DNA from: a virus
Taxonomy: Duplodnaviria > Heunggongvirae > Uroviricota > Caudoviricetes
Direction: 5' to 3' (one strand)
DNA: 64,000 nt
Virus record (IMG/VR): IMGVR_UViG_2718218135_000001
Location: 1-64,000 of that record
Of this stretch, positions 6 through 15,684 are shown in pieces. A program made the position numbers and the translations under genes. How positions within the stretch are numbered: the stretch's first letter is position 1; every line of letters starts with the position of its first letter. Below the pieces are notes generated by a model. That model had not been told where the DNA came from, ran no database searches, and worked only from the letters and a program-made list of their open reading frames with translations.

Positions 6-3731
<3,726 letters not shown>

Positions 3732-3903
3732 TCTACACTCGCGGCATTGGAAGCAAAGATATGGTCGTCTGGCACCTGATGCACATTGATAAGGCTATCA
3801 ACCACACGCTGGAGAAGTTCTTTCCACCAGCCTGAACACAATGATTGTGCGCCTTATAGCGCCCATTAAGATAGATAAGTACTTACCAACAAGGAGAAAA
3901 CAC

Positions 3904-4179
3904 ATGAAGACTTTGGTTCGCATTTCATCTAGTACCGACTATGACGTTTACCCGTTGTTCATGATCAAGTGCGACGGGCTGAACGATGAAGAAATTCAAG
4001 CGGCAATTGAACGCAATCTAGTTGAATACACAGGAATGGATGCGGATTCTATTTATATCGATGATGACGGTGTTTGTTGGCACAAAGGTAGCTGCTGGTA
4101 CGTCGACGACACAATGCTGGTAAGCGATGAAGACGCGGCCCATCTTGAGCGCATTTTGGGTATCAGCACTTTTGAGTGA
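3904..4179 (+). CDS. hypothetical protein
   Basis: ORF 3841..4179; preferred start is the internal ATG at 3904 preceded by aaggag; a copy of the AAGTACTTACC palindrome lies just upstream. Confidence 0.4.
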   Translation: MKTLVRISSSTDYDVYPLFMIKCDGLNDEEIQAAIERNLVEYTGMDADSIYIDDDGVCWHKGSCWYVDDTMLVSDEDAAHLERILGISTFE

Positions 4180-4218
4180 TATTTACAGCAAAATATATAA
4201 GTTAGCATTTACCTATCA

Positions 4219-4398
4219 TGAAAATTTTATTAGATATCACGTTACTTATTATCTCGATAGCCTTTGTGCTCGACTGCATCTTCACAGGGGCAATCCGTAA
4301 AGCGCTGGCGCCTGTTAATGATGTGATGATCAATGCGCTGGCCGTAGTACTGGTCTTCGACTCAGCATTAGGCGTTTTCAAAGGAGTCGTGGCATGAA
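4219..4398 (+). CDS. small hydrophobic (membrane) protein, 59 aa
   Basis: Read by eye, below the ORF-track size cut-off: MKILLDITLLIISIAFVLDCIF...; its stop overlaps the next ATG (ATGA). Confidence 0.3.
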
Positions 4399-4729
4399 GA
4401 AAACAGCCCTGGTACTGGCGCTGCTCACTCTCCCCGTCTTTGCGGACACACATGTCTATGAGTGCGAAATGTTTGTGGTCGAAGCGAAAAACGGCCTGAT
4501 CCGCAACGTCGTTAAAGCTAATTACGGCGCGATGGTTGTGGACCGCGGCGAACAGTTTTATGTGGTACGCGATGATCGCGTCCTGTCTTCCCCGTTTCTC
4601 ACTAAACGTAACGGCGAACTATCTGGCGTAGGTAAAGATAGGTTCGTTTACAACAAATCGGGTGATGTATACGGCGTTCACGCGAAGAACGACAGCTACC
4701 TTTTCGATGACTGCAAGGAGATTAGTTGA
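4394..4729 (+). CDS. secreted hypothetical protein
   Basis: N-terminal signal-peptide-like segment MKKTALVLALLTLPVFA; RBS ggag upstream. Confidence 0.5.
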   Translation: MKKTALVLALLTLPVFADTHVYECEMFVVEAKNGLIRNVVKANYGAMVVDRGEQFYVVRDDRVLSSPFLTKRNGELSGVGKDRFVYNKSGDVYGVHAKNDSYLFDDCKEIS

Positions 4730-4941
4730 TGGCGGTTACACTGACAGGTCTGGAAATCGAAAAAACAAGCGGCTACTGGCGTGCCAAAGGGTTCAAGCAG
4801 TCCGGCGTACTGGAACGACGGGAACGTGAAGATGGGTATATTGTCCACCAGCGACGTGAATGGCGCATGTACGATCCGGAAACAGGTAAGCTCGCAACGA
4901 AGGCCGGGACACTCTGGGGTCTGCTGAAGAAAATCCACTGA
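4726..4941 (+). CDS. hypothetical protein
   Basis: 71 aa ORF whose start overlaps the preceding stop. Confidence 0.35.
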   Translation: MMAVTLTGLEIEKTSGYWRAKGFKQSGVLERREREDGYIVHQRREWRMYDPETGKLATKAGTLWGLLKKIH

Positions 4942-4944
4942 TAA

Positions 4945-5545
4945 CACTATCCACTGCGGTGAGTAGCCAGCTCACCGCGTGTGAATCCAGCTCATAACCA
5001 CTGTAGCGAGTAGAACACCCTTCAGGTATGCACCCCAACCACTGTAGTGAGCAAACCCTCTGCCACGATATCAACTATCCACTGTAGTGAGTAAATTGGT
5101 GATTATCGGGGTCGCTATACACTGTAGTGAGTAAACAGGCGTTCACTGACTACAAACAACCACTATAGAGAGTGATGGAATGCCCCCTCCAGCGGATATC
5201 CACTATGGAGAGTAAATCTTCGCTGTTTTAAACGGATATCCACTCACTACAGTGGATAGAGGTCAAGTCAGCCAATTCTGCTCTTCACAGTGGATAGTCA
5301 ACAATGAGGAGAGCGACGATAACCGCTGTAGAGAGTAGACTTAACAGAGATACCCAGTGACCGCTAACCTCTCAGCCCTTGTTTTATCTATGTTTGCAAC
5401 CACTAACATTTACTTCGCGATTTGTGCGCACTGCCTACAGTGGTTATTCTTCGGTTTCTTTTACTCACTACAGTGGATATTGCATTTCCGATAAACAAAA
5501 AGGCTCACTACAGTGGATAGTGAGCCTTTTTACTCTCTACAGTGG
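4945..5545. repeat. Iteron array downstream of repA (incA-like), at least 13 copies of a ~17-19 bp repeat in both orientations
   Basis: Repeated ATCCACTGTAGTGAGTA and variants (ccactgcggtgagta, ccactatagagagtga, actcactacagtggata) spaced ~35-45 bp. Confidence 0.8.
5496..5533. terminator. hairpin terminator at the 3' end of repA
   Basis: aggctcact...agtgagcct stem flanked by an A-run and a T-run; the stem is itself built from an iteron. Confidence 0.5.
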
Positions 5546-5550
5546 TTGGG

Positions 5551-6606
5551 CTATTTGCGAGCCTTTGCCTTGCGCAGCTCTTCGAGAATCGCCAGTTCTT
5601 CCTTGCTCAACATGACCATTTCCCCGTCTTTTTCTTCAGGGGCAACATCGATAATGTCCTCCGGATCATCACCTGGCAAGATATCTTCTGGCTCTTCAGG
5701 CGTAGCCATAGATGGCGGCAGTGCCGAACGTAACTTCGGCCGTCTATAGTGGATGACGAAGTAGACCGAGCTGCCGCGTTTCACTTCAGTGTAATCGAGA
5801 TAGCCGATCTCTCGCAGCTGCTCCATCGCCTTCCTGACTGTCGCATTCTGGGTAATGGTGCGGCTGGTTAAGTTAAGTCTGGCGCGTAAGCGAGCCAATG
5901 AGATTGGCGCCGGGTCTGGTGGCAAACTTTCAATGAAGGTGTAGAGCGCCTGCGCGGATTCTTTTCTGGAGAGTTCGTTGATGGCCCGAAGTTGCAAAAG
6001 CACCTTTTTGTCGAACTGGTAAAGTTCGAAAATCTTAGGATCGGCCTTCAGTTCGACCGTGTCATTCTTGGTACTGTACTTTGCCGTCTGCACAAGGTGC
6101 GTAACGTAATACTCTTCAGAGCCTTTGCTGCGGAATGAGATGGTGTTTGTGGCGATACGACTTAGAGAGCTGTCCAGGCGCTTACGTAACTTCGCGGACG
6201 ATCTGGCTGTTGGTATGCCACAAAGTCTGACGAACTCGACGAACGGCAACGTGACGGTGTCACCAACAACCTTGTGCTTGGCGAACGCGTGGATGATGCC
6301 CACCCATGTTTTGAAATCGTTATCCATATCAAGACGAAGACCAGCAATCCTTATATCCTCGTACCCTTCGGCTTTGGCCAGAGACAGCTGTTTGAGTTCA
6401 GCGGAGGCGTCCATAGAGACCATTTGCCCCTTTCTACCCCTGGATGTCGATTTCAGCGTCGGAACGAAGAGACCAAGACGCATCAGAGCAACAGGCTGAA
6501 CTGTGTTGTTGGTGTTAGGAACTAACGTAACAACTTCGCCGGTCTTTTTGTCTGTTTCGGAAAATGCTTCGCTTATCGCAATGTTTTTATTGTCGTTTAC
6601 GCTCAT
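5551..6606 (-). CDS. repA: RepA-like iteron-binding replication initiator
   Basis: 351 aa ORF flanked on both sides by iteron arrays, the classic RepA/incC/incA arrangement of iteron plasmids such as P1; the protein itself was not matched to a family. Confidence 0.6.
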
Positions 6607-6639
6607 TCCAAATGTCTCTTTTTATTCGACGGCTTGGGT

Positions 6640-7165
6640 GCCTTTACTGATTACAGTGGATAGTAGCACCCATCACAGTGGTTATCCTACCGCCTACAGC
6701 GGTTTTTCTACTCTCCATAGTGGTTGATTTACTCTCTATAGTGGTTGTTATTCTCACTATAGTGGATATCGATAACCTCTAAAGCCATGTGGCACAACGG
6801 TTTGCAGGGGCCGGGGATCTCTTTGGGTCTTTGTGGTTCTCTTTGGTTCTAACAGGGATCTGAATTACTGGATCGAGCCTGTGTATAAAAATCAGATAAT
6901 TACAAAATCAGGCATCACTCCCCTTCTGGGGATAATGTGTGATCGAAATAAACACGCCGCAACGCAAAATTTACAATATTTCCAAGAATATCAGCCATCT
7001 GCCGCAGAAAAACAGGCTCGGAGTTATCCAGTTAAAACATTGTCTCCTACTCACTACAGTGGATACCGACTACTCTCCAGAGAGGTTGTTTTGCTCTTCA
7101 TAGCGGTTATTATGCTCTCTACAGTGGTTATTTTGCTCTCTATAGTGGATAGTAACCCCTTCTCA
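6640..7165. repeat. Iteron arrays upstream of repA (origin/incC-like) with GATC clusters
   Basis: About 7 iterons (6650-6780) and about 5 iterons (7048-7160), same family as downstream; GATC-rich blocks lie between and after them. Confidence 0.75.
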
Positions 7166-7348
7166 AGCCAGTAACCGCAAGCGCTGGAGACGATCGGGGA
7201 TCTCTTTTGATCTTCTGTAGGATCTCTCTGGGGATCTAAATATTGGATCGGGCCTGTGAATAAAGTGAATAAGTAAACAGGCATTTGCAAACTCCGGTGC
7301 GCCTTATCCGTTATCGTTGCCCCGGACAAAATTATTTGAACAAGAATT

Positions 7349-7993
7349 ATGGATCTTAAACGCACGCGCTGGGTTCGCCGTCTTGAAGATGGCTCCTACA
7401 CCATTGAATCAAACACTAGTCTGAACAAACAGAAGTTGCTCTGCGACCTTTGCGGCATTGCTTCGAAATGCCCGATTAACGAAACCCGGCTTAAACTCCA
7501 CGACGCCGGTGCGCATTTCCACCTAAACAGCTGCATACGTTACGTGCCACTACTAGCATTTCGTAAACCGATCATCGGATTGGATGCTCCCTACTTCAAC
7601 ACACTGCGCTCTGGTGTCACTTGGCGAGATCGTGTCGAACCTGGCAAACTCGTTTGTCTGGTTGAAGCTGATACCGGAAATGTCATCCGGTTCGGGAGAG
7701 TTGATAAGGTCTACTCAGGCCCGGTGGATGAAATGCTGCGGAAACACAGCCGATTTAACCATCTCTGCATGGGCGGAGAGAAGATTGAGAAGGTTGGCGA
7801 AGTAATTCGCAAATCTTACGGACACTTTCTGAATGATAACAGCCTTCTGACAGCCATTTACATTCGCCATGTCGATCGGGAGTTCGACACGGAGTATCAC
7901 AGTGCTGAAGAGTTGAATCTTGTAGACCCTCGTCCAAAAGCTGGGGTAATAGACATCAGCAGAGCGCGTCAGAAGCCCTCAGAGACGTTTTAA
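7349..7993 (+). CDS. hypothetical protein
   Basis: 214 aa ORF, no motif recognised. Confidence 0.45.
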   Translation: MDLKRTRWVRRLEDGSYTIESNTSLNKQKLLCDLCGIASKCPINETRLKLHDAGAHFHLNSCIRYVPLLAFRKPIIGLDAPYFNTLRSGVTWRDRVEPGKLVCLVEADTGNVIRFGRVDKVYSGPVDEMLRKHSRFNHLCMGGEKIEKVGEVIRKSYGHFLNDNSLLTAIYIRHVDREFDTEYHSAEELNLVDPRPKAGVIDISRARQKPSETF

Positions 7994-8389
7994 AGGCAAA
8001 CTCATGCTTTTTACCGGGCATAAAATATGGTGTCTTAGAAAGACACTGAGAGCTTTAGGGATTAATGCATGAGTGAATTTTATTCAAGAGCAGAAACTGT
8101 GGCCGACGGATGCGTTTGAAGACGACGCACGCAAACGCCGTAAATGTCATCTCACAACTTCACCGTCCGTTCTCCTTTTTCATTTCTTGTCATCAGTAAA
8201 TGACTGCTCTCATAAAATTGCTTGTGACGTTTAGAAATCATTGCTGCCCTATCTGATAGGTATTTACTTACTTATTTTTTTGTCATTATCATGTGCCTTT
8301 ATATTCTTTTGTGTGCCGTGTTGTCTGGGTTGTACGCCTCTTATGCACGCTTAGAATTTGTATCAAAATAACCACAAAGGAAAAGACAC

Positions 8390-9475
8390 ATGACATTGCC
8401 ATACGGGGTAATATCAGATCCCCATTATCATCGTTGGGATGCTTTTGCGACAACAAACGCTGACGGGCTTAACTCTCGGCTGGAGATCCAACTGGACGCT
8501 ACGAAGGAGGCGGCCAAAGCGATGAAAGCTGCTGGCTGTAAGCACATGCTGGTAGCTGGTGATACCTTCCATGTTCGCGGTGCTATATCACCTTCCGTTC
8601 TGCATTTCGTGACCGAAACTTACGAGTGGATCATCAAAGAGTTGGGTCTCAAGGTGGTAATGCTGGCTGGCAACCACGACCTCGAAACCAACGATTCCGT
8701 ATACAGCGCCAATGCAGCAGCCTCTCTGCGCTCAATCGGTGTGGAAATCGTCTGCGGCAAACGTCCTCATTCCATCAAAATGGGCGACGTAACCGTCCAT
8801 CTGATTAGCTGGCGTAATAACCACGCAGAACTTATCAGCGATCTCAAAACGCTGCGTTCCGGGCTGGATGGTGACAACCATGATGTTGTTGTACATACCT
8901 CAATCAACAAAGCGATCCCCACCATGCCCGATGTCGGCATCGACGCACAGGAACTGAAAGATATCGGCTTCCGTTTATTGTTGTCCGGGCACTACCACAA
9001 CCACAAAGAAGTGCTGCCTGGAGTGGTAAGTATCGGGGCGCTGACACACCAGAATTGGGGGGATGTTGGTTCACTGGCCGGCTTCATGATCGTCAAACCG
9101 GACGGCTCATTCACTCACCACGAAACCTCGGCACCTAAATTCGTGAACCTTGAGGACGATGTAGATGACGATCAGATTCGCGGCAACTACGTGCGCTTCC
9201 GTGCCGTTGTTGAGAGCGATGAAGAAGGCATCAAACTTCAGAACGTCCTGAAAACAATGGGCGCGAAGGGTGTCGTCTGCAACTTCATTCGCAAGGCATC
9301 GATGATGGAAGGCGCTGCCAGTACTGCGGAAACCAGCAAAATTGACAGCCTGGGAGAGTCCGTTGCGGCGTACTGCAAGATCGTTCACGACACTGACGGT
9401 GGCTTCGACCTGAGCAAGCTGGACATACTGTGTCAGGAGATCTTGACCGAAGCAGAGAGTGCGGAGGCTGTGTGA
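8390..9475 (+). CDS. sbcD: SbcD/Mre11-like metallophosphoesterase nuclease
   Basis: Calcineurin-like phosphoesterase motifs GDTFH, GNHD, GHYH; paired with a downstream SbcC-like ATPase. Confidence 0.75.
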   Translation: MTLPYGVISDPHYHRWDAFATTNADGLNSRLEIQLDATKEAAKAMKAAGCKHMLVAGDTFHVRGAISPSVLHFVTETYEWIIKELGLKVVMLAGNHDLETNDSVYSANAAASLRSIGVEIVCGKRPHSIKMGDVTVHLISWRNNHAELISDLKTLRSGLDGDNHDVVVHTSINKAIPTMPDVGIDAQELKDIGFRLLLSGHYHNHKEVLPGVVSIGALTHQNWGDVGSLAGFMIVKPDGSFTHHETSAPKFVNLEDDVDDDQIRGNYVRFRAVVESDEEGIKLQNVLKTMGAKGVVCNFIRKASMMEGAASTAETSKIDSLGESVAAYCKIVHDTDGGFDLSKLDILCQEILTEAESAEAV

Positions 9476-9516
9476 GGCAACGTTATTATGGGAGCTTTCG
9501 AGAGTTTGCCATCGTG

Positions 9517-9708
9517 ATGAAAAAACTTCAAAAAGGCCAGACGGTTATGTTTCACAAGCCATACCCTTCAGGAGGAAATCCCGTAGCGTTTTATCTTGGA
9601 AGGCTAACCAGAAAAGGCTTATTGAATCGCAGATCCTTCCCCGCGCATACGGAGTTCAGATTGAAAGATGGTCAAAAGTTAACACACGATATCAGAGGTG
9701 TTATATGA
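9517..9708 (+). CDS. small hypothetical protein between sbcD and sbcC
   Basis: Internal ATG of ORF 9430..9708; stop overlaps the sbcC ATG (ATGA). Confidence 0.25.
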   Translation: MKKLQKGQTVMFHKPYPSGGNPVAFYLGRLTRKGLLNRRSFPAHTEFRLKDGQKLTHDIRGVI

Positions 9709-11621
9709 AGTTTTTAAAGCTCCAGGTTGAAAATTTTATGGCAATCGCCAGCGCAGAAGTCGAGTTAGACCAGCGTGGACTGGTGCTGATCCAGGGTGTG
9801 AACAGTGGCGATACGTCTGCTGCCAGCAATGGCGCCGGGAAATCCACTCTGATGAATAGCTTAATGTGGTGTCTGTATGGTGAGACTGCACATGGCGTCA
9901 AAGGCGATGACGTGCTGTCGACGGGCCATGAGAAGAACTGCCGTGTGATGGTTACAGTTGAAGACGAAGGTAAGAAATACGCGATCATTCGCCATCGTAA
10001 ACACAAAGAGTTCAAGAACCGACTAATCGTCCGTGGTGAAGACGGTGATATGACCAAAGGCAAGGACACGCTGACACAGACGTTCGTAGAACGTCTGATT
10101 GGGGCATCGAAAGAGGTGTTCATGGCGTCCATCTACGCCAGTCAGGAAGCGATGCCAGATCTGCCCGGTATGTCCGACAAGAGCCTCAAAACCATCGTTG
10201 AAGAAGCTGCTGGCGTCGACCGATTGACGCGAGCCTATGCCATTGCCCGCGAGCGTGCTAATGCAGCTGCCGCACGTATGGACGTTACCAAATCCAAAAT
10301 GGACGCCTGTCTCACGCTTATCGAGACTGCACAGTCAGAGATTGAGGCGGCCAAAGCGTCCTCTGAAAGCTGGGAGCGCGATCGCGGCGAGCGTCTGGAC
10401 AAGGCCCGAGCCGATTTGGCTGGCGCGGAGGTAACACTGTCTGAAGTCGAGATGGAAATTCGCTCGCTGCCGGAACAGATCCGTGATACGGAAAACGCGA
10501 TTGCTGGCGAACGCAGCAAGCTGGCCTCCAAAGAAGAGCATGACGCCAAACTGCTGAAGGTGCGCAGTGCTATTACTGAGATCCGCTCAAGCATCCGTAC
10601 TTCAGAAGCGGCACAGAACGAGTCGATAAACCGTGCTCGCTCGTTTAAAACCAAAGCTGAAGAGGTCAGCACAAAGATCGGGGCACCCTGCATTACGTGC
10701 GGAAAGCCCTACTGCGAAGAAGATTTATCCACGGTGAAGGAGAGCTTCATTGAACAAGCGCGCAATGAGATCGGCCTTGCGCAGACATCAGCAGCGGCAG
10801 TGGCTCAACACAAGGCTCGTCTTGAGAAAGCGCTCGGTATCGAGTCTGCACTGGTCGCAGCCACACCCGACGTCTCAGAAATCATCTCCACAATAGAACG
10901 CCTGACCAATGAGCTAAGTGCGCTGCGTCATCGCGAACGTGAAGTTGTGGCCGTCGAAGCGATGGTTGCGCGGGCGCGTACTGAAGTGAATCGCATCATG
11001 GCGGAAGCAAACCCATTTCTGGCCGTTATTAAGCGCCATGAAGACAACCTGGCTGCCAATAAATCTAATCATGCAGTACTTAAAAATGAGTTAAAGAGCA
11101 TTCAGGAACAGGCTCTGTTGCTGGAGAAGGCCCGCCAGGTTTACTCCCCAGCAGGCGTGCGTTCACACATCCTGACCTCCGTTACGCCTTTCCTGAACAT
11201 CAGGACTGCGGAGTATCTCAACACGCTGTCGGACGGCAATATCGTTGCCGAATGGTCGACAATGGAGACAACGAAGAAAGGTGAGTATCGCGACAAATTC
11301 AATATCAGCGTAATCAAAACAGGCTCCAGCAAATCCTTCCAGACTTTGTCTGGTGGTGAGAAGCGTAAGGTACGTATTGCGTGCTCTCTGGCTTTGCAGG
11401 ATCTGGTTGCCAGTCGCGCCAGTAAGAATATCGAGCTATTTATCGGTGATGAAATTGACGACGCGCTCGACACAGCCGGTCTGGAGCGTCTCATGGGGAT
11501 TCTGGAAGCCAAAGCGCGTGAACGTGGCACAGTGATGATCATCTCCCATAAAGAGATGAAATCGTGGTTCCGGGAAATTATCACTGTCGAAGTTAAAGAG
11601 GGGCGCAGCTATGTCGTTTAA
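9705..11621 (+). CDS. sbcC: SbcC/Rad50-like SMC-type ATPase
   Basis: Starts at the internal ATG (MKFLKLQVENF); Walker A GAGKST, long coiled-coil middle, C-terminal signature/Walker B LSGGEKRKV...LFIGDEID. Confidence 0.8.
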   Translation: MKFLKLQVENFMAIASAEVELDQRGLVLIQGVNSGDTSAASNGAGKSTLMNSLMWCLYGETAHGVKGDDVLSTGHEKNCRVMVTVEDEGKKYAIIRHRKHKEFKNRLIVRGEDGDMTKGKDTLTQTFVERLIGASKEVFMASIYASQEAMPDLPGMSDKSLKTIVEEAAGVDRLTRAYAIARERANAAAARMDVTKSKMDACLTLIETAQSEIEAAKASSESWERDRGERLDKARADLAGAEVTLSEVEMEIRSLPEQIRDTENAIAGERSKLASKEEHDAKLLKVRSAITEIRSSIRTSEAAQNESINRARSFKTKAEEVSTKIGAPCITCGKPYCEEDLSTVKESFIEQARNEIGLAQTSAAAVAQHKARLEKALGIESALVAATPDVSEIISTIERLTNELSALRHREREVVAVEAMVARARTEVNRIMAEANPFLAVIKRHEDNLAANKSNHAVLKNELKSIQEQALLLEKARQVYSPAGVRSHILTSVTPFLNIRTAEYLNTLSDGNIVAEWSTMETTKKGEYRDKFNISVIKTGSSKSFQTLSGGEKRKVRIACSLALQDLVASRASKNIELFIGDEIDDALDTAGLERLMGILEAKARERGTVMIISHKEMKSWFREIITVEVKEGRSYVV

Positions 11622-12357
11622 CTTGAGCCGCACGCAGTTTTTGCAGATGTTTGCCGTGATGCAGTCTATAAAGCTGATAAACAACCATACAGCAAAAGTA
11701 ACTCCGCCTGCACTTTTGTGGAAAAACGTAAACATCAGCGACGACCAGTTCTCGGTATTAACCAATCTATTGTCATCGACTCCTTTGATGCCGAGCTTGG
11801 CTAATCTGCCGTCAGGAAGCACTGCGCCGATCCTTATTAATCCATTTACGGAAGGTGGATATCTCCCACATTCTGGGCCGGGGTTCGTTGTGATTCCTGA
11901 AACCGGAACGCTGAACATCCAAGAAAATGCACTCTTCAATGCAATGGAGACGCACATCAGCACCGCATTCACTAATCTGATTCGACACGCTAACGCACGC
12001 GCGGATCACGTTGCAATGCCGGGTGCTGCCTTCGCCAGCTTCTCTGTTGACTATGACCGGCACGCGCCAATTTCAAAGCGGGCGAAACTCTGCTTTTACG
12101 AGAAGGGATGTGAAGTAGCGATTATTGAAGTTCTCCTCCCCCACGTATTCAACGCGAATGAAAAGGCTGCGTGCCAACTTATTGACATCATGCGGCATTT
12201 CATCGGCCAGAGCATGATTGATGCAGATATTGCTGCAGGCGTTCTGATCAACGATGGCATTCACGTAGTTAACGACATTCCGAAGCCGCCAACTCGCGAG
12301 CCGGAGAAGACACTTGAACAGAAACTAATGGAATGCCCAACCTGGGCTACGTGGTAA
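11611..12357 (+). CDS. hypothetical protein
   Basis: 248 aa ORF overlapping the end of sbcC. Confidence 0.45.
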   Translation: MSFNLSRTQFLQMFAVMQSIKLINNHTAKVTPPALLWKNVNISDDQFSVLTNLLSSTPLMPSLANLPSGSTAPILINPFTEGGYLPHSGPGFVVIPETGTLNIQENALFNAMETHISTAFTNLIRHANARADHVAMPGAAFASFSVDYDRHAPISKRAKLCFYEKGCEVAIIEVLLPHVFNANEKAACQLIDIMRHFIGQSMIDADIAAGVLINDGIHVVNDIPKPPTREPEKTLEQKLMECPTWATW

Positions 12358-12691
12358 GGAGACCAAAATTTCCGATACGGAGAGAGTTGTAGAGGGGGTT
12401 ACGCTTGATCGCATCGACTCCAGCAAGGGATATGAACCAGGGAATCTGAGGTGGGCTGACAAGCACGTCCAGAGTGCAAATAAACAAGGGAAAGTGGATG
12501 GTAGTACGTCGAAGTTTACTGGCGTTCATTACTGCAAAACGAACAAGGTTTGGGTTGCTAGAGTTGTGTGGAAAGGAGAGTGTGTCTTCTTGTATCAATG
12601 TCACGATGAATTGGAGGCTTACTTAGCGCGTAAGCGATTTATCGAAGAGCACAATCTACTGCATTTTGTTGAAATGGAGGTCACAGAGTGA
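12329..12691 (+). pseudogene. HNH homing endonuclease remnant (HNH C-terminal motif + AP2 DNA-binding domain)
   Basis: Open frame encodes ...LDRIDSSKGYEPGNLRWADKH... then an AP2-like SKFTGVHYCKTNKVWVARV...ELEAYLARKRF; no N-terminal catalytic half and no in-frame start before 12494. Confidence 0.4.
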
Positions 12692-13257
12692 AAAAAGTAA
12701 TCAAAGTTGCAGGTCTCGATCCATCTCTGTCAAATTTTGGCGTTGCCATCGGAGAAATAGAACTGGATTCAGGTGCATTGCAGGTCAATAAGTTGCATCT
12801 CATTGAGACGAAAGCTGGTGATACGAAAAAGCAAGTTCGCGTTAACAGTGACGATATGCGGCGGTTGAACGAGATTTGGCGTGGTATTAAGCCACTGATT
12901 GACCAAGTTCATTTAGTGTTCTGCGAACTGCCAGTAGGCAGTCAATCTGCTAGAGCGATGGTTTCTTATGGTGGTTGTCTTGGCGTACTGGCGTGTGTGG
13001 ATAAGCCACTGATACAGGTCACGCCAAACGAGATTAAGTACTATGTCGGGAATAAGCTGACTACGTCGAAAGAAGAGATCATTCAGTGGGCTACGCAGAA
13101 GCAGCCAAACGCCCCGTGGTTGCGCCGGAAGCAATCGGGCAAGGAAGTGCTGGTGAATAAAAACGAGCACCTTGCGGACGCTGTCGCATCGATTTACACC
13201 GGTATGCAAACTGATCAATTCCGTCAGGTTCGCGATGTTCTTGCTGGAATTTTATAA
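12688..13257 (+). CDS. RuvC-like Holliday junction resolvase
   Basis: N-terminal VAGLDPSLSNFGVAIGE and C-terminal HLADAVASIY RuvC-type motifs; GTG start. Confidence 0.6.
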   Translation: MKKVIKVAGLDPSLSNFGVAIGEIELDSGALQVNKLHLIETKAGDTKKQVRVNSDDMRRLNEIWRGIKPLIDQVHLVFCELPVGSQSARAMVSYGGCLGVLACVDKPLIQVTPNEIKYYVGNKLTTSKEEIIQWATQKQPNAPWLRRKQSGKEVLVNKNEHLADAVASIYTGMQTDQFRQVRDVLAGIL

Positions 13258-13293
13258 GTTGATAATTGATAGGTAAGTGCTTATCTATTACCA

Positions 13294-13322
13294 TGAGACC
13301 ACTATATATAGTGGTCTTTTTA
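13294..13322 (+). terminator. rho-independent terminator
   Basis: gagaccactatatatagtggtc hairpin followed by TTTTT. Confidence 0.6.
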
Positions 13323-13522
13323 ATTGGGCTACACATAATAAGCATCGTAAAACGTAACGCCCACCGAGCCGCTGCCAGCTGCATGAAGCGCTGACAAAGT
13401 TCGCTGTCGATTGCACTGGCCCGAGCCAGTTCGAATACCTCTAAGCCGAGTTTAACCACTTTGTGGCCTGGCGCTGCTGGGTCAAAATTGGCGTATCAAA
13501 AGAAGTCTAAAGGAAAGAAAAC

Positions 13523-14401
13523 ATGAAATTTACGAAACTGACCGATCATCTGAAACTTGCCGCAGACAAACTCGTGGGGTTTAAACCAGAGCCTTACGAG
13601 TTGAATCCCGGTTTCGGCAAGACAACGGAAAGCATCTACCTGATGGTTGACCAGTTCCACACACTGTTTCAGCACCCACGCCGTGCCATTCCAGATCCGG
13701 CATTACTGCGTCTGCGTGCCAAGCTGATCCACGAAGAAGCAGTTACCGAGGGCATCCCGGCAGCCAAAAATGGGGATATGACGGCACTGCTGGACGCGAT
13801 GGCTGACTTCCTTTACGTGGGCGTCGGCACAATGGTGGCCATCAAAGGCGGCATCTCGACGGGCATGAGTTACTACACCCAAGAGCAGAGTGTTGATTGC
13901 TTCATCCACACCATCATGGTTCCGGGCAACACGGTCTTTGACGATATGGCTATCCCGTTTGAAGAAGCAAAAGAAGCTGCATTAATGCTGAATGCGCTGG
14001 CTGACAAACTTGAAGCGAAGCCGATAAGCGATTCCGAATTGGTGCAGGAGCTGCGCCGCGTGATGAACAAAATCTACGTTGCCTGCATGATGACCTACCG
14101 TCTGGCTGATTTTCTCGGAATCGATATTGTTGAGCTGGTGGCAGAAATCCACCGTTCCAACATGACCAAGCTGTGGCCGGCTGACGCCGAAGAGCGTCGT
14201 GTGGCGGTAGAGAATTGCAAATACGATAAGGAAGATCTGGGGTTCCGCCATGCTGAAGGGACTGACATGATGATCGGCTTCAGGATTTCTGATGGCAAGA
14301 TCCTCAAATCTCCCACCTACAGCGATGTGGATCTGACTTGCTTTGTTGAGAAGGCGAAGTCCTCATCTCTTTACGAGATGGTAAAAAATAATTGTAAGTG
14401 A
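13523..14401 (+). CDS. MazG-like nucleotide pyrophosphohydrolase (putative)
   Basis: N-terminal all-alpha region with EE/D-rich motifs typical of MazG/HisE-type NTP pyrophosphatases; weak, by eye. Confidence 0.35.
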   Translation: MKFTKLTDHLKLAADKLVGFKPEPYELNPGFGKTTESIYLMVDQFHTLFQHPRRAIPDPALLRLRAKLIHEEAVTEGIPAAKNGDMTALLDAMADFLYVGVGTMVAIKGGISTGMSYYTQEQSVDCFIHTIMVPGNTVFDDMAIPFEEAKEAALMLNALADKLEAKPISDSELVQELRRVMNKIYVACMMTYRLADFLGIDIVELVAEIHRSNMTKLWPADAEERRVAVENCKYDKEDLGFRHAEGTDMMIGFRISDGKILKSPTYSDVDLTCFVEKAKSSSLYEMVKNNCK

Positions 14402-14463
14402 GTACTTATCATTATATATTGCCTTGGCGTGTTTTATTGTCCAAGTTCTTAATTGCTCATTGC

Positions 14464-14493
14464 AATGGTGGCCGAAGAGCCACCATTTTTTTT
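14464..14493 (+). terminator. rho-independent terminator
   Basis: aatggtggc-cgaaga-gccaccatt followed by a T-run of 7-8. Confidence 0.7.
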
Positions 14494-14568
14494 ACTCCCC
14501 TCCTAGCCTTACACACTTCTGACAGATAAACTTGTATAAAATAATAGGTATGCACTTACTTATCTTGT

Positions 14569-15684
14569 GTGAGGTTGATTTTGTCTATCCTACTGAATCG
14601 AGACTTTACGAACGGTCAGTTTGCCAGTGGTTCGTATGCCAAAGTGGTTGAAACGGTGCTCAACACTGGCGTTCACGCGGGTGATCGCACCGGAACCGGC
14701 ACAAAAAGTGTTTCATATGTCCCTTCCTACTACATGCTGACGGGCGGATCTGTTCCACTTATCTCCGGAAAAGCCGTCAATCTGAAGCCGTTACTGGTTG
14801 AGCTGGAGTGGTATCTCAAAGGAACAGGCAACATCCAGTTCCTGAAAGACAATGGCGTCAAAATCTGGGATGCCTGGGCCGATGAAAATGGCGATTTAGG
14901 CCCGGTCTATGGCAAGCAATGGCGTCGGTGGGAAGACACTCGCATCGTGAGCCATAGCGAGTATCTGCGCAAAATCGACACGTTCCGTGAGCGCGGGTAC
15001 AAGGTCGAGGGGTATCTGGGCGTAAGTGAAGATCGCGTTGTGTTGTCCCGTGAAATTGACCAGCTACAGCGTATCGTTGACACGCTTCGCACCAACCCTA
15101 CAGATCGTCGCATCCTGCTGAATGCCTGGAATGTTGGCGAACTGGAAGATATGAAGCTGCCGCCATGCCATTTCGTGTTTTCACTGTGGAGTCGCGAGCT
15201 GGACTTTGAGACCCGACTGACTATGGCCACCGACATTGGCATACAGCACAACCGCCACGGCCACGAGTCCATTTACACCCAGATGCTGTGTCTTCTGGAA
15301 AGAGATGGCGGCATTACTGAGAACATGCTGGACGAGCTGGGCATCCCGAAACGCATTCTGAACTCATGCCTGGTTCAACGCAGTGTCGATACCTTTGTTG
15401 GTATGCCGTTCAACATCGCCGGTTACGGCATTCTCACCCACTTCCTCGCGAAGATCACCGGCCACATGGCTGGCGCATTCGTGCATTTTGGCTTTGACGT
15501 TCATCTCTACGACAACCACATGGAAGGCGTTGAGGAACTGATGAAGCGCGAGCCGCCCAAAGAGTCCGACCCGGTTGTCATCTTCCCGCATGAATGGGCC
15601 GAACTGGACGACTTCAAATGGGAAGGTGTGCAGGTGTGCGGCTACAGCCCTCTTCCGTGGATCAAGGTTCCAGTGGCGGTGTGA
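14569..15684 (+). CDS. thyA: Thymidylate synthase (ThyA family) with two large insertions
   Basis: DRTGTGT, WDAWADENGDLGPVYGKQWR, LPPCH catalytic cysteine, PFNIAGY, HLY; 371 aa versus about 264 for canonical ThyA; GTG start. Confidence 0.8.
   Translation: MRLILSILLNRDFTNGQFASGSYAKVVETVLNTGVHAGDRTGTGTKSVSYVPSYYMLTGGSVPLISGKAVNLKPLLVELEWYLKGTGNIQFLKDNGVKIWDAWADENGDLGPVYGKQWRRWEDTRIVSHSEYLRKIDTFRERGYKVEGYLGVSEDRVVLSREIDQLQRIVDTLRTNPTDRRILLNAWNVGELEDMKLPPCHFVFSLWSRELDFETRLTMATDIGIQHNRHGHESIYTQMLCLLERDGGITENMLDELGIPKRILNSCLVQRSVDTFVGMPFNIAGYGILTHFLAKITGHMAGAFVHFGFDVHLYDNHMEGVEELMKREPPKESDPVVIFPHEWAELDDFKWEGVQVCGYSPLPWIKVPVAV

Follow-up and report, generated by a model that had tools for sequence, protein, structure and literature searches.

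A 64,000-nucleotide stretch of viral DNA (Caudoviricetes; IMG/VR record IMGVR_UViG_2718218135_000001, positions 1 to 64,000; hereafter the window) carries, immediately in front of a RuvC-like resolvase gene (ruvC), what is very probably the non-functional 3' remnant of a free-standing gene of the homing-endonuclease type. The product of this gene would have combined a zinc ribbon, a beta-beta-alpha element without the usual histidine and an AP2 domain, and the gene appears to have been broken by a 418-bp deletion. A first-pass annotation made from the letters alone had read the region as the end of an HNH-AP2 homing endonuclease, and its descent from a homing-endonuclease-type gene is now supported by an empty site in relatives, a linked ruvC tract, the movement of the whole block between plasmid backbones, and homologues found in an intron and in a split gene. 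The comparisons support a degenerate member of the HNH-AP2 / IPA-HNH kind of homing endonuclease gene, not of the canonical HNH kind.

The frame at 12329-12691 opens directly after a TAA (12326-12328), runs for 120 amino acids (aa) and is closed by a TGA (12689-12691). Its translation, WNAQPGLRGKETKISDTERVVEGVTLDRIDSSKGYEPGNLRWADKHVQSANKQGKVDGSTSKFTGVHYCKTNKVWVARVVWKGECVFLYQCHDELEAYLARKRFIEEHNLLHFVEMEVTE, contains the core motif LDRIDSSKGYEPGNLRW followed by AP2-like sequence. The PHROG matches of this translation are all labelled 'HNH endonuclease' (phrog_374, E=6.8e-17; phrog_99, 2.5e-12; phrog_3377, 6.6e-12), and its similarity to these families and to the intact gene described below is far above chance. 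The HNH and AP2 profile search that the first-pass annotation had suggested was thereby answered in part, but Pfam gave less: no HNH model matches the remnant, and AP2 (PF00847) reaches E=0.023 and 15.4 bits, below the gathering cut-off of 33.3. A complete HNH catalytic region in an overlapping frame was also looked for and was not found, as the other two forward frames of 12200-12691 contain no such region and nothing comparable to the remnant frame. Furthermore, a six-frame profile scan of the whole window detected neither a second copy nor an additional fragment of the family.

Direct evidence comes from the comparison with relatives, in which three forms of the same locus can be distinguished. 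Over this region, the window has 93.9% identity with Salmonella phage SSU5, and the value rises to 99.8% for a set of E. coli IncFIB phage-plasmids. The gene is wholly absent from SSU5 and most relatives; in SSU5, the genes SSU5_076 and RuvC-like SSU5_077 lie 11 nucleotides (nt) apart (...TAA GGAGACCAAAA ATG...), and a precise empty site is also present in a C. freundii plasmid. In the E. coli plasmid p.CT29-P1 the site is filled by a 777-nt coding sequence for a 258-aa 'hypothetical protein' (WP_063091564.1), and at least 30 further plasmids have a full-length gene at this position, E. coli and S. Typhi phage-plasmids being among the carriers; the intact copy that was to be sought in relatives therefore exists. 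In the empty alleles, the RuvC-like gene begins at the very point where the endonuclease-like gene begins in the carriers. When aligned to p.CT29-P1, the window matches it on both sides of one clean 418-bp gap between 12368 and 12369, and the remnant proper (12369..12691, + strand) aligns without gaps to the last 323 nt of the intact gene (extract 2288-2610), with a C->T change at 12660 as the sole mismatch. The three forms, empty, intact and deleted, can be aligned to the exact base and constitute a presence/absence polymorphism at one site among close relatives.

The 418-bp-deleted allele was counted from plasmid matches and a RefSeq genome search. It is present in six other PLSDB plasmids, as single uninterrupted 3001-bp matches, and in 3 of 5,426 complete RefSeq E. 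coli genomes. The notion that an error of sequencing or assembly produced the gap, or that an insertion turned an ancestral short form into the long one, has next to no probability. A bare length difference would agree with either, but complete plasmids that were obtained independently, in different countries and from different hosts, share the very same junction, which means that the gap is inherited and no assembly artefact, and the long form is collinear throughout with dozens of homologues of 226-252 aa, so that the short form is the derived one.

The position of the gap explains why the open frame has no usable start, a feature that the first-pass annotation had seen correctly. The gap opens with the first base of the start codon and takes out residues 13-151 of the 258-aa protein (1-139 if numbered from the real start); since 418 = 3 x 139 + 1, the frame is shifted as well. 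Consequently, the ORF (open reading frame) listing contains no ATG, GTG or TTG in the remnant frame upstream of GTG 12494. The start codon has been deleted, not mutated, and with it went the zinc ribbon and the first, conserved half of the nuclease-like domain. The loss of a 'catalytic N-terminal half', as it had been put, is thus accurate for these parts but not for the beta-beta-alpha core, which is kept. With its start lost and its frame disrupted relative to the intact orthologues, the remnant is a pseudogene.

The residue numbering depends on where the gene really starts. In the numbering of WP_063091564.1, the RefSeq protein from E. coli, the homologues start at about residue 13, and in the S. 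Typhi plasmid pTy004_01 the PGAP start lies 36 nt further in, which gives a gene of 741 nt and a product of 246 aa (WP_101700920.1). The remnant proper corresponds to the last 323 nt (TGA included) of this 741-nt form. The later start codon, ATG in pTy004_01 and GTG in E. coli, stands 7 nt past a GGAG and coincides with the position of the ruvC ATG in the empty alleles. RefSeq is inconsistent at this point (window 12333-12368 versus S. Typhi extract 3001-3037), as WP_063091564.1 is taken from an ATG that still lies within the last part of the upstream gene and WP_101700920.1 from the later codon. Since the homologues begin at the later codon and its Shine-Dalgarno spacing fits, ATG 12333, the RefSeq start in E. 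coli, is probably not the real one. In the window, this ATG opens a 19-codon ORF (MPNLGYVVRRPKFPIRREL*; 12333..12392, + strand, +1 frame, stop TAG 12390-12392), whose first 12 codons are the RefSeq N-terminal extension; these 12 codons are host sequence that is also present in the empty-site alleles, and they are probably not translated as part of the gene.

Two ribosome-binding sites frame the element. The GGAG Shine-Dalgarno at 12358..12361 (+ strand) serves ruvC in the empty alleles and the endonuclease gene in the intact ones, and is orphaned in the window. The RuvC-like gene uses a GGAGG at 12676..12680 (+ strand), which is embedded in the remnant at its 3' end, 7 nt upstream of GTG 12688, and the TGA of the endonuclease-like gene overlaps this GTG. 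Both deletion alleles known at the locus, of 418 bp and of 570 bp, keep at least 64 nt of the 3' end of the gene, including this GGAGG, and the retention likely reflects selection for ruvC expression.

The gene has been inactivated more than once. Of 26 complete E. coli genomes with the gene, 20 have an intact copy, three have the 418-bp deletion, two have a 570-bp deletion and one is truncated by IS1. The 570-bp deletion is in-frame and lies between 9-bp direct repeats (GCGTAAGCG), a pattern typical of replication slippage; in one example, E. coli pNT1F34-108k (601-807 of the extract, equivalent to window 12333-12691), it leaves a 68-codon ORF from which the nuclease-like domain and most of AP2 are gone. 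In E. coli pLR-62-2_1 (extract 2501-3612), the gene is cut after nt 399 by IS1A, beyond which lie unrelated genes of chromosomal type (an aromatic amino-acid transporter, partial, and a lactate permease), and the RuvC-like gene is gone from its position. In addition, a separate insertion was observed in NZ_CP101235.1, where the endonuclease-like gene is intact and an IS3-family element of ~1.35 kb is apparently inserted ~22 nt into the RuvC-like gene (~window 12710).

These other alleles bear on whether the fragment in the window could still be of use. It retains the beta-beta-alpha (His-Me-finger-like) motif TLDRIDSSKGYEPGNLRWADKHVQSANK at 12401..12484, recognized by conservation and by the strands and helix of the model, and the AP2-type DNA-binding domain, three strands and a helix, at 12509..12658 (both + strand). 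In the remnant frame, a start codon opens only one ORF, at GTG 12494 (12494..12691, + strand; 65 aa, AP2 only), which shows no sign of use. A 65-aa AP2 peptide started at this GTG, or a fusion made by a -1 slip at CCA-AAA-T, might act as a regulator or in target protection: the ORF exists with its AP2 domain otherwise intact, a single-tRNA -1 slip would be possible on the four consecutive A at the junction, and the co-option of an endonuclease DNA-binding domain has a precedent in CapR (PMC10448857). Such a function is nevertheless very unlikely. The Shine-Dalgarno-like AGGGA in front of GTG 12494 is badly spaced, as it ends merely 2-3 nt upstream, and the junction offers no canonical X_XXY_YYZ heptamer. 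Moreover, the 570-bp deletion drops nearly all of AP2 and the IS1 allele drops the 3' part, from which it follows that the fragment is dispensable. PGAP calls no gene at the remnant in the sister plasmids, and the C->T at 12660 (+ strand), which is private to the window when compared with three sister plasmids, turns Pro into Leu in the near-invariant NLPH at the end of the AP2 helix, consistent with relaxed constraint. A programmed -1 frameshift joining ATG 12333 to the remnant frame was considered separately and rejected as the principal reading, as the slippery site is non-canonical and the junction is a deletion scar.

The second line of evidence for a homing-type gene is the sequence that travels with it. 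Compared with SSU5 or the empty C. freundii plasmid, identity is 93-100% up to 12368 and again from ~12980, and drops to ~60% across the first ~290 nt of ruvC. This variant of the RuvC-like gene (12688..12979, + strand), strictly linked to the endonuclease gene and presumed to be a co-conversion or immunity tract, occurs at >=99% identity in 39 of 279 matching plasmids, the other 240 being at 60-80%. The S. Typhi plasmid pTy004_01, otherwise SSU5-like with nrdA downstream, carries the same block in a different backbone: it differs from p.CT29-P1 at 106/1868 and 14/300 positions in the flanks (4.7-5.7%), but at only 7/1030 (0.7%) across the gene and the ruvC 5' tract, with the same boundaries. 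The low divergence of the block relative to its flanks indicates a homing-like transfer with co-conversion.

A course of events that would account for these patterns begins in an ancestor of the E. coli SSU5-like phage-plasmid lineage, where the gene and ~290 nt of foreign ruvC 5' sequence probably arrived together. The landing point would have been the start codon of the RuvC-like gene, so that the ruvC ribosome-binding site was taken over and a new one was supplied from the 3' end of the incoming gene. The intact protein, which we infer to be a nuclease with its target in this area, would most likely cleave the unoccupied site of a co-resident relative, at or close to where ruvC begins; the donor would then serve as the repair template for both the gene and the neighbouring ruvC segment, which resists cleavage. 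Later, in the sub-lineage of the window, the 418-bp deletion would have killed the gene and spared ruvC and its Shine-Dalgarno, and the remnant, now presumably decaying neutrally, would represent the degeneration stage in the life cycle of a homing gene.

The deletion junction itself (CCAAAA joined to TTTCCG at 12368..12369, unstranded) could be read in another way, as the scar of an aborted homing event: repair of a cut empty site would have copied no more than the 5' tract of ruvC plus the last 323 nt of the gene, followed by homology-free end joining at the break. The left end of the gap is both the first base of the start codon and the host/insert boundary, a coincidence of roughly 1-in-100 for a random endpoint, and the junction lacks microhomology, unlike that of the 570-bp deletion. 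One coincidence is no test, however, and endpoints further left would harm the upstream gene, which biases those that can be observed. As the plasmids with the deletion match intact carriers at 99.8% identity on both sides, a deletion in a carrier is the more parsimonious explanation, and aborted homing is considered distinctly improbable.

The nature of the intact protein was approached through its homologues and a predicted structure. A search of 5.8 billion proteins yielded 56 homologues, mostly of 226-252 aa and none annotated. Their alignment reveals an N-terminal CxxC...CxxxC zinc ribbon, then a helical segment with W..M..RCxNP....Y..YGGRGI, a third part with the motif LDRIDxxxGYxxGNLRW....Q..N, and finally the AP2 domain; within the part of the motif that the remnant retains, the residues D, R, Y, N, R, W, Q and N are invariant in the family. 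The AlphaFold models are confident, with a pLDDT of 83.5 for the whole protein and 88.8 for the N-terminal 169 residues. In them, strands 162-166 and 178-182 and helix 183-190 form a beta-beta-alpha unit with the beta-beta-alpha-metal topology of His-Me finger nucleases, and a three-stranded sheet packed on a helix, as expected of AP2, follows. At the metal-site positions, the loop asparagine N177 is invariant and D165 and the helix asparagine N189 are nearly so, as is Q186 in the helix; Y173, in the loop between the two strands, is also invariant and may correspond in space to the tyrosine of PacI.

PacI is the best match among solved nuclease folds, although a modest one, and belongs to a His-Me finger group that lacks the histidine and uses an omega-loop tyrosine (PMC5714182). 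A PacI-like mechanism for the family is therefore plausible by analogy. The similarity is one of fold, since PacI (PDB 3ldy/3m7k; His-Me group 20, PMC5714182) is a homodimeric restriction enzyme without AP2 and has no HMMER-detectable sequence similarity to the family, and searches of PDB sequences with the family profile and with the nuclease-domain profile returned noise and weak zinc-ribbon or AP2 matches. No NCBIfam model matches the intact protein. The AP2 model of Pfam does not match the intact E. coli protein and matches 9 of 23 homologues (best 1.5e-9). The AP2 domain named in the first-pass annotation is borne out by its three-stranded sheet and helix, while its Pfam score on the remnant stays below the cut-off. 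Similarly, the 'HNH-type motif' stands as a beta-beta-alpha element with PHROG labels and the modest PacI fold match, but not as canonical HNH, which the family is not; the assignment 'HNH' is valid only at the level of those labels and that match.

Several points weigh against a homing endonuclease. The position of the HNH catalytic histidine, at the end of strand 1, is occupied by an arginine (D165-R166) that is invariant in the family; the intact protein matches no Pfam family at E<=10, and none of 23 family members matches an HNH model. In many members the domain is repeated in 2-5 tandem copies, an uncommon arrangement in a nuclease, and no family member with demonstrated cleavage was found. 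Furthermore, the transfer of the block could in principle come from ordinary homologous recombination, and the neutral decay of the remnant leans on one substitution (12660). In many bacterial or metagenomic proteins, the tandem RCxNP...YGGRGI...LDRID...N.RW copies always have Asp-Arg and never Asp-His.

The missing histidine, the absence of Pfam HNH matches and the tandem copies, such as are seen in DNA-binding modules, could all be accommodated if the intact gene encoded a DNA-binding protein with a degenerate His-Me finger and AP2 but no nuclease, and if the block spread by ordinary recombination between co-infecting phage-plasmids; His-less His-Me fingers such as Smad MH1 do bind DNA (PMC5714182). 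This explanation is unlikely, as the metal-site Asp, the loop Asn and the helix Asn are conserved, the omega-loop Tyr is invariant, which is the solution adopted by PacI (PMC5714182), and PacI is the solved nuclease that fits best. It also leaves aside the exact-site presence/absence, the one-sided linked tract and the intron homologues. These three features are typical of homing endonuclease genes, and the reading as the remnant of such a gene is preferred.

The homologues outside the immediate lineage point in the same direction. An orthologue with 61% identity occupies the same locus in a distant SSU5-like contig, homologues of 42-49% identity adjoin Sak4-like genes in N4-like phages, and another lies within a Sak4-like annealing-protein gene that is annotated as two joined exons (Escherichia phage Bas96, extract 2003-3551). 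A homologue of 32% identity is found within a group I intron annotated as interrupting an endolysin gene (Staphylococcus phage Lacachita, extract 2174-4594). The nuclease-like domain is much more widespread: its profile matches 123,666 cluster representatives (50% identity) at E<=1e-3 among 1.84 billion, no Pfam coverage of the domain was detected among the members checked, and a literature search for the motifs YGGRGI and LDRIDN returned nothing relevant. It is possible, though doubtful, that this is a very large family of His-less nucleases without a Pfam model, with Arg in place of His and the omega-loop Tyr as the putative nucleophile, as in PacI.

Among known systems, the classical HNN/HNH-AP2 homing endonucleases (Magnani et al. 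2004) are one of the closest. They belong to His-Me group 2 (HNH_3 + AP2, I-HmuI-like; Xanthomonas phages Xp10/OP1/Xop411, PMC2248197), are likewise free-standing with a nuclease followed by AP2, and a degeneration series that includes AP2-only remnants is on record for them (PMC2248197). Unlike the present family, however, they keep the Asp-His pair and match PF13392, whereas here the pair is Asp-Arg and no Pfam HNH model matches. Another parallel is offered by the IPA-HNH genes, described from Vibrio phage ICP1 and from further phages (Barth, Dunham and Seed 2023, PMC10448857), which have an atypical HNH-like domain missed by Pfam and a C-terminal AP2, are free-standing beside DNA-metabolism genes at the boundaries of exchanged segments, and are known to include frameshifted or otherwise inactivated copies (PMC10448857). 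The family profile aligns with ICP1 gp59 (ORF59), a founding IPA-HNH member (PMC10448857), at E=5.2e-5 and 67% probability in hhalign over 108 columns, while pairwise BLASTP gives E=0.073 at 21% identity; gp59 also lacks a histidine at the equivalent position (LDK versus LDR in the family). On these alignments, distant homology to gp59 is probable. In contrast to IPA-HNH, the present family has an N-terminal zinc ribbon and RCxNP...YGGRGI, and resides on a phage-plasmid and not a lytic phage. The free-standing homing genes of T4 (SegG, MobE and others) resemble it in their insertion between genes of DNA-metabolism operons, in flanking co-conversion and in the coexistence of empty, intact and degenerate alleles, but those enzymes are GIY-YIG or canonical HNH, and their activity and homing are experimental, whereas here we infer both.

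As to the neighbourhood, the placement between sbcC-region genes and ruvC had been correctly recognized: an SbcC-like ATPase (ORF 9459-11621) and a phrog_2117 protein (11611-12357) lie upstream of the remnant, and the RuvC-like resolvase (12688-13257; phrog_159, E=1.7e-53) lies downstream. No Rfam match at E<=1, and hence no intron, was detected over 11000-14500, which indicates that this gene copy is free-standing. A scan for promoters and terminators within the remnant gave nothing above chance, and one terminator-like hairpin is located 3' of ruvC (13295-13318). Further downstream, a MazG-like pyrophosphohydrolase (13523-14401) and a thymidylate-synthase-like ORF (14569-15684) are encoded, in place of which SSU5 and pTy004_01 have nrdA/nrdB (window 13258-15684 versus SSU5 extract 4940-8062). 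This difference marks a further mosaic boundary, right after the hairpin.

To conclude, 12369-12691 should be annotated as a pseudogene remnant, neither left blank nor called as a 65-aa ORF, with the note that it carries the ribosome-binding site of ruvC. SSU5-like phage-plasmids are clinically widespread in E. coli, Salmonella (pHCM2-like plasmids) and Yersinia, and the RefSeq label of their intact gene is merely 'hypothetical protein', although its product has a nuclease-like domain with neither a Pfam model nor the canonical histidine, the chemistry of which is worth testing. Genes of this kind follow the Goddard-Burt cycle of invasion, fixation, degeneration and loss, and the remnant is itself an ordinary stage in the life cycle of such selfish genes. 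The locus offers a compact natural series of that cycle, with an empty site, an intact invader and its linked tract in an essential-looking recombination gene (RuvC-like), a transfer between backbones and three independent inactivations. If the family does consist of His-less PacI-like enzymes, the empty, intact and three broken alleles would provide a natural system in which to show that such enzymes drive homing.

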